A stretch of 64,000 nucleotides of DNA, taken from a virus (Duplodnaviria; Caudoviricetes). The notes below the pieces were generated by a model that saw nothing but the letters and a program-made list of their open reading frames with translations, had not been told where the DNA came from and did no database searches. The stretch lies in IMG/VR virus record IMGVR_UViG_3300021426_000001. One strand, written 5' to 3'. Numbering within the stretch: the stretch's first letter is position 1; each line of letters starts with the position of its first letter. Shown here in pieces: positions 7,004 through 38,037 of this stretch. Both the position numbers and the translations under genes were made by a program.

Positions 7004-8131
7004 ATGCTCGAAAAAGTCTCTATCGCAGAATTTATCGAACTCGCCCTCTGCTGCCCTGATGAACAGGCAATGCTCATTCTCGGCGACTTCGGTATTGGTA
7101 AGACCCAAGTCGTTCAGAAGGTCGGAACTATTCTCGGAATAGACGTCATCGTGTTCGACTGCACTCACCTCAATGACCCTGGCGACATTCTCGGTCTTCC
7201 GTCCATCATCAACGGTCGCACCATCTTCAACCCGACTTACTGGTATCATCCTGAAAAGCCGGTGCTGCTCTTCTTCGACGAAGTATTCCGTGCTACTCCG
7301 GAAGTTCGCGCTGCTCTCATGACTCTCTGCTTGGACCAGACAATTGGCGACAAGAAGCTCGCTCCTGGCTCTCGCGTCTTCGCTGCTGCTAACCCGCCGG
7401 GATTCCACGGCTACGAAGGTGAAATTCCTGACCCGGCTCAGCTCTCCCGCTACGCTCCGTACTGGCTTGATCCGACCTTCAACGAATGGTACGAATACGC
7501 TAAGGAAGCTAAGGTTCACCCAGCTATCCTCGAATACTTGAACAACAACAAGAAGGACCTCGACGCTTACTCCGCTGCTAGCGACATGAACGTCGCAGCC
7601 GACGACGGCAACGGCGCCGACCTCAAGATCCTCCAGTGCCGTCGTTCTTGGTTCAAGGCTTCCGACAACCTCTACAAGGCCGAGAAGGTCAAGAAGGTCA
7701 AGAAGCTCGACCGAAACCTCGTGATCCGCATCATGAGCGGCTACATCCCGGCTACGATGGCTGTGAAGTTCGCTCAGACCTACATGAACACTTCCACTTC
7801 GAGCCTCAACGCCGAAGACGTCCTCAACGACTGGAAGAAGGTCAAACCGGCCGATGGCGCTAAGCTGGATGTGCCGACCGCTGCAAAGCTCGCTGGCGAC
7901 ATCAAGCTCATCGTCAAGGAAACGATGAAGGAAAAGGGATCTATCCCGAAGAAGTGGAAGAACAACTTCTCTGGCTTCATTCAGGAAGGTCTCTCGAAGG
8001 AATCCCAAGTCGCTGTCATTAACAACCTGATCTTCCAGGACATGACGAACAACGAAGACTGGGTCTTCTGGATCTCCGACGACGAACTCCAGTCGTTCTT
8101 CGAAACCACGGTGGCCTCCAAGGTCGCCTAA
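7004..8131 (+). CDS. MoxR-family AAA+ ATPase
   Basis: Walker A GDFGIGKT, 'DILGLP', Walker B LFFDEVFRA, 'AAANP', 'DPAQLSRY'; near the vWA gene. Confidence 0.85.
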   Translation: MLEKVSIAEFIELALCCPDEQAMLILGDFGIGKTQVVQKVGTILGIDVIVFDCTHLNDPGDILGLPSIINGRTIFNPTYWYHPEKPVLLFFDEVFRATPEVRAALMTLCLDQTIGDKKLAPGSRVFAAANPPGFHGYEGEIPDPAQLSRYAPYWLDPTFNEWYEYAKEAKVHPAILEYLNNNKKDLDAYSAASDMNVAADDGNGADLKILQCRRSWFKASDNLYKAEKVKKVKKLDRNLVIRIMSGYIPATMAVKFAQTYMNTSTSSLNAEDVLNDWKKVKPADGAKLDVPTAAKLAGDIKLIVKETMKEKGSIPKKWKNNFSGFIQEGLSKESQVAVINNLIFQDMTNNEDWVFWISDDELQSFFETTVASKVA

Positions 8132-8144
8132 CATTAAAATTCTC

Positions 8145-8201
8145 GGACCCTCACCCTTTCCTTATGGTCCTTTGTTTTACACTGGGTGAGGGTCCTTTCT
8201 T
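8145..8201 (+). terminator. Terminator-like 12-bp stem with a 27-nt loop antisense to early leaders (candidate regulatory RNA)
   Basis: GGACCCTCACCC / GGGTGAGGGTCC then TTTCTT; loop TTTCCTTATGGTCCTTTGTTTTACACT. Confidence 0.7.
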
Positions 8202-18566: not shown

Positions 18567-19898
18567 TTACCACGTACCCTCATCGCCTTCACCGTTCAGA
18601 CGAGCTGCGAGGCCTTCGAATCTGAGAAGTCTGTAATAGTTCTCAGCGCCGAGCATATTGTCGGCAAAGGCGTATCTGGTCATCACGCCAACTCTCGGAG
18701 AGAAGTCACGTGGATCAGTTGCCTGAAGAGTCAAGCTCGTGATGTACGGGCAGTAAACGACACCGCAGTTAGAAAGGCCTTCGCCCTTGTATGCGATGAG
18801 CACTTCACCGTTGTCCATGTTGGTCATCGGATCGACAGCGTTGTTGTCGATGAAGACCTTGATGTTGCCGTTCAGAGTACCTGCGGCAGCAGTAGCAGAG
18901 CTACCGTTCACGTTGGTAACGATCTTGCTGAAGTTCGGAGCAGCGATCTGCATAGCAGTTGCGATGTCCGGAGATACGACAGCGATGTTACCTGCAGAGG
19001 TACGAGTGCTGGTTCTGATGTTGTTAGAAGCTGCGATCACCTTAGCGACGATGTTAGCCAGTCTCTCCTGAGACCAACGACCGTTCCAACCGTCACCAAC
19101 GCCACCTGCGCCTGGAGCATTGCTTACAACGCCTTCCTTGAAGCGGAAGATCTTCGGCGTGCAGAGAGCCTTACAGTGAGCGATAGTCTCACGGTCGACT
19201 TCCTGAACGAGCTCTTCCTGACAGGTCTTGATCATCTCGCTCATCATGTCGAGGTGCTGCATAGACTCGACGTCCTGAGCAGACTCGATAGAGAAGCTTG
19301 ATCCGACCTTACGGGTCTTAGCTGCCACGACCTGCGTAGCGAGCATGAGTCCGAGCTCCGGCCACTTCTCGAACTTGGCTGGATCGCCACCTAGCTTCCA
19401 GTGCTCAGCAGCCTCAGTCTCAACTGCGGTACCTGCATCTGGCTTACCGTCGCGGTTAGCCGTAGAGCCAGTGAAGCCAGAGAAGCGAGCGACGTGCTTC
19501 CAAGCAGCTTCAATGATCTGCGTAGGATCTGCCGTCTTGTAGATACGACGGACAGCGCAAGCCAGAGATACTGGACCTGCCATCGGCTGAACGCCAACGA
19601 GGACGTTTGCGAACATTTCTGGGAAAGCTCTACGAACGATGGCCATAGAGATGTTCGGGAGAACACCCTTGCCCGGACCGCCGTGCGGAATGCCCTGGTT
19701 GAGACCAGTAGCGCCACCAACGCCCATGCTGAAGTCTTCGTCAAGTCTCATGCCCTTCTTTACCCAGCGGTCCTGGTTCTCCAGAAGCTTGGCAGTGTTG
19801 GCACGAATATACTTGTCACCGATCGAAGCAACAGAAAGTGCATTTGGCTTTTCGCTCCATGCCTCTGTGATTGTCTTCTGTGAAGAAAGTATTTTCAT
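18567..19898 (-). CDS. gp23: Major capsid protein
   Basis: 'LLENQ', 'IVRRAFP..ANVLVGVQPMAGP', 'VAAKTRK', 'YCPY', 'FSPRVGVMTRY'. Confidence 0.95.
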   Translation of the reverse strand: MKILSSQKTITEAWSEKPNALSVASIGDKYIRANTAKLLENQDRWVKKGMRLDEDFSMGVGGATGLNQGIPHGGPGKGVLPNISMAIVRRAFPEMFANVLVGVQPMAGPVSLACAVRRIYKTADPTQIIEAAWKHVARFSGFTGSTANRDGKPDAGTAVETEAAEHWKLGGDPAKFEKWPELGLMLATQVVAAKTRKVGSSFSIESAQDVESMQHLDMMSEMIKTCQEELVQEVDRETIAHCKALCTPKIFRFKEGVVSNAPGAGGVGDGWNGRWSQERLANIVAKVIAASNNIRTSTRTSAGNIAVVSPDIATAMQIAAPNFSKIVTNVNGSSATAAAGTLNGNIKVFIDNNAVDPMTNMDNGEVLIAYKGEGLSNCGVVYCPYITSLTLQATDPRDFSPRVGVMTRYAFADNMLGAENYYRLLRFEGLAARLNGEGDEGTW

Positions 19899-19921
19899 TC
19901 TCTTTTACTCCTTGAAAATTC

Positions 19922-35907: not shown

Positions 35908-36807
35908 CTATTTATTGTCCTTTGGAAGATGAGCCTTGACAGCGTTTTCAACTCTCACGCAGATCATCTTAGCTTCGTTAGCGTCCTGACACGGAATGAC
36001 TCCCACATTGCTAGAGGCAGAGAAGACCTTCAAGTCTCCGAGAACTTCACGGCAGTCTACGAGAGCGTTGCAAGAGCGGATCGTGATGTAGTGAGACTTC
36101 GGATGATAGACCATGAAGTAGTTGACGCCCTCCATGTCCATCTGTTTGCTGATCTCGGAGTGGTACTCGTTAGCGGTGATGAAGCGTCCGTTGAAAGACA
36201 TCTCCAGCTGAGCTAGAGACTCGTAGTAGAGCTTCCAGTCACGGACATGTTCAGTGAGAATGTCCTTCTCGGTCTGAGTGAGTGCGAAAGCTCCGCCCTT
36301 GCTCCAGCGCTTCATGAACGCGTATGCGCTCTCTGCCTTCCAGAAGAGAGTGTTGAAGTGGAACGAGCGGATGTCCTTGAGCTTCCAGAGCTCGAAGTCG
36401 TCTGCGATCTTTGCGATGTCGGCATAGCGTTCCATGTCGGCCATCCAGCGCTTGTAGTACATGTAGACCATGATGGATCCAGAGTAGTCCTGATTGACGT
36501 GGACATCCTTGTTGTTCAGCGTCTTCCACCAGTTGGCGTTCTCGTGATGGTCGAAGATTACGAACGGAGTCTTGCCGTTGGTGAAGACTTCGCGACTCGT
36601 AGTCGGTGCGAAGTTCGTGAAAATGACGACATCGTAGCGGCCAGGAGCTTCCCTGTAGCGCTTGATCATGTCTTCAGGCTTTCTGTAGGAGACGAAGAAA
36701 GTGTCGCAGTGCGGATAGTAGGCTTTGAGCAAAATTGATGAAACTGCGCCATTTAAGCTATATGATGTAAAGTTGAGAATTCTTAAGTTTCGATTTTTCA
36801 GGTCCAT
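35908..36807 (-). CDS. DHH-family phosphoesterase
   Basis: 'VIFDHHEN', 'DDFELW'; start ATG 36807 behind AAGGA. Confidence 0.7.
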   Translation of the reverse strand: MDLKNRNLRILNFTSYSLNGAVSSILLKAYYPHCDTFFVSYRKPEDMIKRYREAPGRYDVVIFTNFAPTTSREVFTNGKTPFVIFDHHENANWWKTLNNKDVHVNQDYSGSIMVYMYYKRWMADMERYADIAKIADDFELWKLKDIRSFHFNTLFWKAESAYAFMKRWSKGGAFALTQTEKDILTEHVRDWKLYYESLAQLEMSFNGRFITANEYHSEISKQMDMEGVNYFMVYHPKSHYITIRSCNALVDCREVLGDLKVFSASSNVGVIPCQDANEAKMICVRVENAVKAHLPKDNK

Positions 36808-36832
36808 GAGTAGTTCCTTGTTGTTCAATGAC

Positions 36833-36861
36833 AATATAGGAATTTCTTCCGAGTTCGTAAA
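36833..36861 (-). promoter_or_regulatory. Early sigma70-like promoter
   Basis: GGGTTTACG-N17-TATATT on minus strand. Confidence 0.75.
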
Positions 36862-36864
36862 CCC

Positions 36865-36901
36865 AAAAACACCGAAAGTCCCAGAATTGCTTCTGGGACT
36901 T
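36865..36901 (-). terminator. Intrinsic terminator after gp32
   Basis: AAGTCCCAGAA-GCAA-TTCTGGGACTT on minus strand. Confidence 0.75.
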
Positions 36902-36917
36902 GTTTCTTTTTACCTCG

Positions 36918-36965
36918 TGAACGGTCTAAGATAGGAGTAAAAGAGTAAAAGAGTTGGACCGTTCA
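36918..36965 (-). ncRNA. Candidate 3'-UTR stem-loop RNA with loop antisense to the gp23 RBS
   Basis: TGAACGGTC/GACCGTTCA stem; minus-strand loop CTCTTTTACTCTTTTACTCCT. Confidence 0.45.
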
Positions 36966-36985
36966 ACCAGTTTCTTTGACGAGCT

Positions 36986-37924
36986 TTAGGTGAGATCGTT
37001 CAAGAATTCGTCGATGTTCTCGCTAGACGGCTTTTCAGCTGCTGGCTCTGCATCTTCGCTTCTGACAGACTCGTTCGTTGCAGCAGTGTTGCTCGGGTCC
37101 ACGCCTGGAATGATCGGCATGTACTTGTACTTGCCTTGCGGATCTTCCTTGGTGCGGTCGTAGAGCTTCTTTGCTGCGAGCTTCTCGTAGGTGTCCAAGA
37201 CATCTTCAAAGGTTTCCTTGCTGGTGTCCTTCTCGCACTCCTTGAGAGTGTAGAGCTTAGCGTCAATTGCTTCAATCTCCTGGTCAGTGAGAGGGTTGTT
37301 GTTCTTGTCGCTGATCGGCTTCTGGTCACCGAAGTAGGACTCTTCTGGGTTCGGACCGAACTCAGTGTCCTTAGCCTTGTAGATGAGGTTTGCGCCCTTG
37401 TAGTAGTCGAACACGTTCACGCCAGCGATGTGTCCCTTATCCGGATCGTCCTTACCGTTGAGCTTCTCGAGCAGCTTGTCCATGATTTGGACGCCGAACT
37501 TGAAGCGGTAAACTTTGCCTTCGCTATCTGGGTTGCCAGGGTGCTTCACGACATAGACGTTGCAGATGTAGGTCTTCTTGGCCTTCTTCGCGCCAGCCTT
37601 CTTAAGGACATCCTTTGCCTTCTCTTTCGGGAAAGCGTCGAACACAGCAGAGTTCCAGTCGCAGAGAGGACACTTGTGGTTGTTCTTTCTGAGACAGTCA
37701 ACGACCTTCCACTTGCCGTCAGTGTCCTTGAAGGAGTGAGTTCTGTTCTCTACGAACGGAGCCGTCTCTGTTGCAGGCTGCGGGAGCAGTCTTAGGACAA
37801 TTTCGCACTTGTGGTTGATCATGATGGGTTCGAAGAGATTTTCGATTTCGTAGCCCTTCTTATCCTTCTTGCCTGCGAGTTCGTTGACCTGCTGGAAGTA
37901 ACCGTCAAAATTGCGTTCGATCAT
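36986..37924 (-). CDS. gp32: Single-stranded DNA-binding protein
   Basis: 'LRLLP', 'HSFK..GKW..DC...CPLC', 'YICNVYVVKHPGNPDSEGKV', 'FD..KGAN', acidic tail. Confidence 0.92.
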   Translation of the reverse strand: MIERNFDGYFQQVNELAGKKDKKGYEIENLFEPIMINHKCEIVLRLLPQPATETAPFVENRTHSFKDTDGKWKVVDCLRKNNHKCPLCDWNSAVFDAFPKEKAKDVLKKAGAKKAKKTYICNVYVVKHPGNPDSEGKVYRFKFGVQIMDKLLEKLNGKDDPDKGHIAGVNVFDYYKGANLIYKAKDTEFGPNPEESYFGDQKPISDKNNNPLTDQEIEAIDAKLYTLKECEKDTSKETFEDVLDTYEKLAAKKLYDRTKEDPQGKYKYMPIIPGVDPSNTAATNESVRSEDAEPAAEKPSSENIDEFLNDLT

Positions 37925-38037
37925 ATTTTTACCTTTATTGTTCCTTTATCTTTCATTCATTTTTCTTCTTAACGCCTCACCGGAAGTTTATCTCCCGGGG
38001 ACATGTTATATATAGAAACTTTTTTGCGCTCAAAAAT

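Follow-up and report, generated by a model that had tools for sequence, protein, structure and literature searches.

A conserved hairpin in the gp32 3′ UTR of uncultured T4-like rumen phages carries a loop complementary to the major capsid gene start region and is a candidate RNA brake on capsid synthesis

Introduction

Timed gene expression has its classic model in the T4-type phages, in which the post-transcriptional controls known to us all rely either on proteins (RegA, RegB, gp32 and gp43) or on hairpins acting in cis. Immunity of the temperate phages P1 and P7 is controlled by the c4 antisense RNA, a processed RNA of ~77 nt made from the same operon as its target. It exposes loops that complement the ribosome-binding region of a phage mRNA, and relatives differ in specificity through changes that match between loop and target; Rfam has a C4 family for this RNA.

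In T4, e, soc, 49 and I-TevI have start regions that are masked in cis by hairpins formed in early read-through transcripts, and the gene 32 mRNA, processed at −71, is the most stable phage message (PMC3014915). Several bacterial systems place a similar pairing element in an mRNA or a small RNA. The 3′ UTR of the icaR mRNA of Staphylococcus aureus contains an anti-Shine-Dalgarno (anti-SD) motif that pairs with the SD sequence (PMC3868564), and 3′ UTRs are the source of bacterial sRNAs such as CpxQ, SroC, DapZ and others (PMC9438474), while CisR acts on the cep mRNA of CTXphi (PMC13250501). RNAIII and RsaE/RoxS represent the sRNAs of Firmicutes with C-rich loops (PMC6158497). Among the phage sRNAs listed in a 2025 review, none regulates a capsid gene and none comes from a lytic phage (PMC12197685).

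Here we analyse a hairpin located behind gp32 in a 64-kb stretch of DNA (64,000 nt, referred to as the window or WIN) that derives from an uncultured rumen T4-like phage with a lytic T4-like genome. The nearest cultured relatives of this phage are cyanomyoviruses, which are similar only distantly; its close relatives are uncultured contigs of 243–248 kb (IMG/VR; sheep and cattle gut/rumen assemblies), and contigs of relatives are denoted below by G001–G004 and by L-numbers.

Results

A hairpin between the gp32 stop codon and its terminator

The gp32 gene for the single-strand DNA-binding protein (36986–37924, minus strand; Pfam PF08804, E 7.7e-22) ends with a TAA codon at 36988–36986, and all genes neighbouring the hairpin lie on the minus strand. 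Between this stop codon and a separate terminator, TGAACGGTC (36965–36957) pairs with GACCGTTCA (36926–36918) to form a 9-bp stem that closes a 30-nt loop (36956–36927), which reads CAACUCUUUUACUCUUUUACUCCUAUCUUA on the gp32 (minus) strand. A 21-mer within the loop (36933–36953, minus strand) consists of two tandem copies of the 8-nt unit CUCUUUUA followed by CUCCU. The flanks ACUGGUUG and CACGAGG form an outer helix (C36970–G36913, U36969–G36914 and G36967–C36917), and the whole conserved element of flanks, 9-bp stem and 30-nt loop, which is supported by covariation in 16 variants, spans 36913–36970 on the minus strand. A preliminary description of this stretch, made from the sequence alone, had reported the stem, the tandem-unit loop and their place between the gp32 stop and the terminator, and every detail of it was reproduced.

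The separate gp32 intrinsic terminator (36866–36901, minus strand) has an 11-bp stem (36901–36876) with a 4-nt loop, followed by UCGGUGUUUU. Its helix covaries in the relatives, with 91.7% of positions paired and 7 of 9 pairs showing compensatory change in the first eight variants, and its U tract is conserved on the gp32 strand. Runs of T are present on both sides of the 36876–36901 stem, which scores as a terminator on either strand. The upstream hairpin itself was ruled out as an intrinsic terminator, as judged by a GC-rich stem, a 3–8-nt loop and a U tract straight after the stem: its loop is 30 nt long, its stem is followed by CGAGGUAAAAAGAAAC, and the true terminator is the next hairpin at 36901–36876.

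The calculated folding energy of the hairpin was −14.7 kcal/mol on the gp32 strand and −15.9 kcal/mol on the plus strand of the window, in agreement with the earlier remark that the opposite strand folds slightly better. The gp32-strand fold was unremarkable by energy alone (z = −1.8), and the support for the structure therefore comes from covariation rather than from energy. A cmscan search of 36500–37300 on both strands against Rfam 15, which includes the phage C4 antisense RNA, returned no match at E values up to 10. The hairpin is a new conserved RNA structure that lies outside every RNA family described in Rfam 15.

Conservation and covariation of the element

Sixteen distinct variants of the hairpin were gathered from rumen metagenomes. 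The element was found directly 3′ of gp32 and 5′ of a terminator in all 16, which is the 3′ UTR location of 3′ UTR-type trans-acting base-pairing RNAs. The gp32 proteins encoded next to these variants were 56–69% identical to the window gp32, and neither of the UTR stretches flanking the element could be aligned. Within the stem, 97.4% of the cells of the alignment were paired and 6 of the 12 pairs carried compensatory changes; none of 500 shuffles matched the observed paired share or the covariation score, and slid alignments reached 29–40% pairing. The first eight variants had given the same outcome.

The flanks ACYGGUUG and CACGARGU were near-invariant across the 16 variants, and five stem pairs were invariant in all of them. 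The 30-nt loop was identical in the window, L083 and G002 apart from one extra A beside the stem, despite 62–69% identity of the gp32 proteins and differences in the adjacent UTR and in the stem bases. Of the 16 variants, 14 retained CUCCU, G003 among them with the motif shifted, and L113 and its close relative L112 had CUCGU in its place. The AACU at the 5′ end of the loop was conserved too and has no counterpart at gp23. The flanks and the AACU, which pairing with gp23 does not explain, hint at a protein partner.

The copy number of CUCUUUUA in the loop varied from 1 to 3 among the relatives (L118, 8495–8611; L087; window, 36933–36953), probably by slippage, and only the 3′-most copy adjoins the anti-SD. 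A regular-expression search for copies of the scaffold found one hairpin per genome. A distant gp32 of 37% identity was followed by a plain terminator only, which makes the element clade-specific.

Complementarity between the loop and the gp23 start

The gp23 major capsid protein gene (18567–19898, minus strand; Pfam PF07068 Gp23, E 6e-59) is preceded by the gene for a T4-type scaffold protein. The plus strand reads CTCTTTTACTCCT at 19900–19912, which in minus-strand RNA gives AGGAGUAAAAGAG, followed by A and the gp23 AUG; the proposed target, the translation start region AGGAGUAAAAGAG-A-AUG (19896–19912, minus strand), is conserved in the relatives. The loop contains a 13-nt seed, CUCUUUUACUCCU (36933–36945, minus strand), with the anti-SD CUCCU inside it; this seed complements AGGAGUAAAAGAG without a mismatch, over the gp23 SD and the spacer ending 1 nt before the AUG. 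This 13-mer and its complementarity had been pointed out in the preliminary description and held on re-examination. Cis sequestration of the T4 type was ruled out, because 17 kb of sequence and a terminator separate the loop from the gp23 start region.

Two kinds of insertion were observed in relatives. IS605-type OrfB/TnpB insertions occur in the head-gene block of one relative (L100, 2068–3447 and 6747–8018; L099, 19348–20508), one of them sitting between gp21 and gp22. Intein-like insertions (Pfam Intein_splicing) occur in some relatives in a topoisomerase-like gene adjoining the head genes and in a gyrB-like gene (L104, 15266–17185; L121, 14694–16745; L109, 1–1099).

Searching the window for the 13-mer with up to one mismatch returned the loop and gp23 sites only, with 3 matches against 0.12 expected, a number reached by none of 100 shuffles. 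Each of two relatives with near-complete genomes (243 and 248 kb) had the cognate 13-mer at exactly two places, the loop and the gp23 ribosome-binding site (RBS); the genome-wide count thus favoured the earlier claim of a specific match, since the window and both ~245-kb relatives have the word at these two places only. The longest perfect complement of the loop on either strand of the window, G001 and G002 was the gp23 site, with one tied 13-mer in G002. Among the large-loop hairpins of the window, the longest complement between loop and a start region was 6–10 nt, compared with 13 nt for the gp32 hairpin; the non-coding hairpins with 18–45-nt loops, with the 8.1-kb hairpin described below set apart, reached 6–9 nt against any start region. 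These comparisons employed contiguous complements and shuffle tests, as rankings by seeded RNAduplex were noisy, with long gapped duplexes prevailing; RNAcofold of the hairpin with the leader was left out of the evidence because it opens the stem and cannot model loop-to-linear kissing.

Start regions with GGAGUAA were found in 1 to 7 genes per genome, and loop complements of 9–12 nt in a few other genes, for instance one with AGGAGUAAAAU-AUG in G002 and G004. In G002, the leader of a late-promoter gene at ~66477–66510 (minus strand) contains two loop-complementary stretches, AGUAAAAGAGUA and UAGGAGUAAA. This gene, at ~66.5 kb and outside the homologous range of the window, is a possible second target.

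Matched and unmatched changes across lineages

To follow loop and target together, we used nine lineages that carry both sites on one contig. The paired loci were reached through a 184-aa gene located midway and chained exact-protein look-ups, a 608-aa gene also located midway being too divergent. The gp23 start region was conserved in all relatives whose gp23 was 89–97% identical, and existed in two variants, GAG and GGA. In eight of the nine lineages the loop was complementary to it at 12–15 of 13–17 positions, with differing registers; six of the nine had a unique complement of 11–15 nt, and the duplex was split in two more. With the common start region AGGAGUAAAAGAG-A-AUG, the predicted duplex measured 13 nt in the window and G002, 15 nt in L097, where an A to U change in the loop lengthens it, 11 nt in L113, whose anti-SD is CUCGU, and 11 + 3 nt in L099, in a register one base upstream; L120 had 6 + 6 nt flanking one C-A mismatch, and G003 paired at 11 of 13 positions, one of them G-U. 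With the variant start region AGGAGUAAAAGGA-A-AUG, the duplex measured 13 nt in G001 (UCCUUUUACUCCU) and 12 nt in L115, and in L104 it consisted of 9 nt over the AUG and 6 nt around a 2 × 2 mismatch. Loop changes that lengthened the duplex fitted the target, namely the A to U change of L097, which brings the duplex to 15 nt, and the CAUUUCC of L104, which reaches the AUG.

Seven loops were tested against 2000 shuffled versions each, and for five of them no more than 11 shuffles matched the observed duplex energy. L099 was marginal by energy (128 of 2000 shuffles), with 8 of 2000 shuffles matching it by contiguous pairing. For G003, 333 of 2000 shuffles reached the observed energy, which is not significant; complementarity is largely lost in this lineage, showing that the pairing can decay.

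The change from GAG to GGA at gp23 was matched in the loop by a change from CUC to UCC or CC. Genomes of the GGA type had C opposite the new G in 3 of 3 cases and U opposite the new A in 2 of 3, the GAG-type genomes had CUC in 6 of 6, and all nine loops paired better with the start-region type of their own genome than with the other type. The GGA-type genomes formed one clade in the gp32 tree (support 84/86), so the matched change amounts to a single event that involved two adjacent pairs. Loop changes elsewhere were uncompensated, the gp23 start being unchanged: UU to AA in L104, U to C in L120 and C to G in the anti-SD of L113. Matching start-region variants predicted for L104, L120 and L113 were looked for and none was found. 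One additional uncompensated mismatch each in L099 and L115 brought the lineage-specific uncompensated changes to five in all.

The loop thus presents a conserved seed that complements the start of another mRNA, and it shows covariation that comprises one matched change and leaves G003 without significance. The co-variation of loop and gp23 RBS suggested in the preliminary description stood for the GAG/GGA change, and was tempered by its being a single event, by the uncompensated changes and by the decay in G003. Because loop and gp23 start region both show strong conservation, much of the complementarity that they share is inherited and not repeatedly re-selected. The pattern is asymmetric, in that the RBS is near-static and the loop followed on its one move. 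Drift of the loop is tolerated while a duplex of ~11–15 nt, or two halves of 6–9 nt, persists. In a more distant sister clade gp23 is 58–66% identical and has a different start region, UUGGAGGAUUCUAAUG (UUGGAGGAUUCUA); the contigs of this clade are without gp32.

The loop is carried on an abundant gp32 RNA

Part of the stretch was present in 13 metatranscriptome runs from sheep and cattle gut. We mapped four runs from four studies onto the region as contigs, which show neither strand, true ends nor level; the word depth of the gp32 contigs in these four rumen metatranscriptomes was 5–21, compared with 0–4 for the flanking genes. Upstream of gp32, the leader and a promoter-like TTTCTATATAT occupy 37925–38015 (minus strand), and RNA contigs in two studies started at 37989/37990, 66 nt upstream of the gp32 AUG and just below TTTCTATATAT. 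Contigs from two runs spanned the whole hairpin down to 36914. An abundant and apparently monocistronic gp32 RNA carries the loop.

The hairpin remained joined to the gp32 coding region in the RNA contigs, which cannot show RNA ends. In two studies the contigs ended at 36914, the 3′ base of the hairpin, with no contig cover over the terminator; this end was not counted as evidence, because de Bruijn branching among co-occurring strains explains it equally well. Contigs of two sheep-gut runs contained a 9-nt insertion, TAACCTGCG (plus strand), at 36985, directly after the gp32 stop, which is a strain variant in the variable linker ahead of the hairpin.

The gp32 leaders of the window (37925–38015, minus strand), G001, G002 and G003 consist of a 5′ stem-loop followed by 2–3 ACAAUAAAGG repeats running into the SD, and resemble the T4 gp32 autoregulatory operator with its structured 5′ element and unstructured A-rich repeat. 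When compared with the loop, the leaders of the window, G001 and G002 paired no better than with shuffled loops, the longest complement being 6 nt, and the leader of G003 was marginal (26 of 500 shuffles). Since the gp32 leader is not complementary to the loop, the hairpin is not a case of icaR-type self-pairing.

A second hairpin at 8.1 kb

The preliminary description had placed the gp32 hairpin in a system of 3′ UTR anti-RBS loops together with a hairpin at 8.1 kb. This second hairpin (8145–8195, plus strand) has the same design, with a 12-bp stem and a 27-nt loop complementary to a leader and its SD. Its loop is complementary to UGUAAAACAAAGG(ACC), the leader found after TTCYTATATT promoters at six sites of the window, including that of its own gene; the leader and SD together read UGUAAAACAAAGGACC. 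Counterparts were present in G001 (204747–204794), G002 (75560–75609) and G003 (about 34461), in all of which the stem covaries and the loop complements ACAAGGACCAG start regions located after the same promoter type. The 8.1-kb hairpin is terminator-like, is located behind the gene at 7004–8131 and is directly followed by a TATAAATA late promoter.

Scans for further large-loop hairpins with complements to start regions, or for copies of the scaffold, found none beyond these two. As to the proposed system, the 8.1-kb hairpin proved to be genuine and conserved, with a loop that complements the starts of a class of genes, and the scan for similar hairpins that had been envisaged left the system with two elements only.

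Promoter motifs in the window were of two kinds. A sigma-70-like class, TTTACR-N17-TATATT, was over-represented (6 sites against 0.2 expected), with TYCYTATATT sites at 36833–36861 (minus strand), 6949, 17771, 28376, 31310 and 60660, and was interleaved with TATAAATA late-promoter motifs (9 against 0.27 expected). The early-type TTTACR-N17-TATATT promoters, the TATAAATA late promoters and the head genes share one strand.

Discussion

The sequence comparisons lead us to favour, as rather probable, a reading in which the gp32 mRNA represses translation of gp23 through an anti-RBS loop that acts in trans. Pairing in vivo, repression rather than activation, and a role in timing are what we infer. 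In the proposed mechanism, the 3′ UTR of gp32 mRNA would display an unstructured pyrimidine-rich loop of ~30 nt atop the covarying stem, composed of the anti-SD CUCCU and a gp23-specific extension. The loop would pair in trans with the SD and spacer of the gp23 mRNA, and in some lineages with the AUG, and the resulting duplex of 13 nt, which reaches from the SD to position −1, would shut out the 30S subunit. The gp32 mRNA is abundant and is expected to be made ahead of the late genes and to be long-lived, which predicts a threshold effect: gp23 carried on early read-through or first late transcripts would stay untranslated until gp23 mRNA outnumbers the gp32 3′ UTR. Read-through into gp23 before its assembly partners are present is plausible, because both promoter classes and the head genes lie on one strand.

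The hairpin can also be read as a conserved 3′ UTR element with another job, either as a 3′ stabiliser of gp32 mRNA or as a protein platform, with the gp23 complementarity being an inherited by-product of a pyrimidine-rich, anti-SD-like loop. We regard this as unlikely, while giving it real weight. The bound protein could be gp32 itself, a RegA-like repressor, a host chaperone or a nuclease, and this reading agrees with the near-fixed flanks and five stem pairs, with the loop-start AACU that lacks a gp23 counterpart, and with the several uncompensated loop changes and lost significance in G003. The contigs stopping at 36914 would fit 3′-terminal protection, a weak hint that assembly branching explains equally. 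A stabiliser requires a stem, however, and not a conserved loop, and it is very unlikely that the start of the main late gene should be matched over 13 nt by chance, given 6–9 nt in other hairpins and its uniqueness in 245 kb. An element of this kind also leaves unexplained the matched GAG/GGA and CUC/UCC change, the preference of nine loops out of nine for their own start-region type, and the extensions that follow the target toward the AUG and upstream.

It is improbable, in our judgement, that the loop serves as a broader anti-SD regulator or sponge of AGGAGUAAA-type start regions for which gp23 is merely the best match, or that the relation is reversed, with late gp23 mRNA pairing with the gp32 3′ UTR and altering the fate of gp32 mRNA. 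Retention of CUCCU in most variants and the few other genes with 9–12-nt complements, such as the ~66.5-kb gene of G002 and the AGGAGUAAAAU-AUG gene of G002 and G004, are what a broad regulator would produce. GGAGUAA start regions, on the other hand, are confined to 1 to 7 genes per genome, the extension past the SD tracks gp23, and no secondary target was found to be conserved across the genomes. Far less credible still is a function of the plus strand, as an antisense RNA whose RBS mimic AGGAGUAAAAGAG would act as a decoy for ribosomes or for a repressor that binds the gp23 RBS, an alternative already raised in the preliminary description. The plus strand has the slightly better fold in the window, and the wobble test leaves the strand undecided, with 187 of 192 cells pairing on the gp32 strand and 183 of 192 on the opposite one. 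It is the context that favours the gp32 strand: the element is part of the gp32 transcription unit, with the stop codon on one side and the U-tract terminator on the other, and the neighbouring genes are all on the minus strand. Plus-strand RNA from below would halt before the hairpin, because the terminator is terminator-like on that strand too, and no start codon is conserved behind the mimic in the relatives. Taken together, these considerations leave the trans-acting loop on gp32 mRNA as our preferred reading, and the earlier interpretation as a whole is partly supported.

Repression of gp23 by the gp32 3′ UTR, if true, would link the replication and assembly phases through RNA-RNA pairing and would add to phage biology an mRNA that acts as a regulator; the natural GAG/GGA pairs of loop and target would provide a ready specificity swap. 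The comparative data make the element a probable RNA brake on capsid synthesis, and control of this kind has so far not been demonstrated in T4-type phages. It is quite possible that part of the early-to-late programme of T4-like rumen phages runs, beside the promoters, on trans anti-RBS loops at 3′ ends, with the hairpin at 8145–8195 directed at the early-promoter class and the gp32 loop setting the capsid threshold; no T4-type phage would have provided a trans-acting circuit of regulatory RNA before.

Compared with described systems, the gp32 hairpin likely shares with the T4 cis hairpins the purpose that no late protein be made from transcripts that arise too early. The T4 hairpins act within the same leader, whereas the gp32 loop would act in trans from another mRNA. 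The likeness to icaR lies in a regulator placed inside a coding mRNA, with a 3′ UTR anti-SD blocking translation at the SD; icaR pairs with its own 5′ UTR, while the target of the gp32 loop is another gene 17 kb away, and the two have no sequence relation. As in the 3′ UTR-derived sRNAs, the seed lies in an mRNA 3′ UTR upstream of a shared terminator and would act in trans on other start regions, but those sRNAs are released and mostly Hfq-dependent, whereas the gp32 hairpin stays joined to the coding region in the RNA contigs. The C-rich sRNAs of Firmicutes likewise use a pyrimidine-rich anti-SD in a hairpin loop to pair with a G-rich SD; they present a short UCCC to many targets, in contrast to the 11–15-nt gene-specific complement held in one large loop of the gp32 hairpin. 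The gp32 hairpin differs from c4 in having no Rfam match, and in its lytic T4-like genome, its 3′ UTR site and its structural-gene target, and shares with it a phage-encoded loop that is complementary to an RBS and has changed in step with its target, here in one event.
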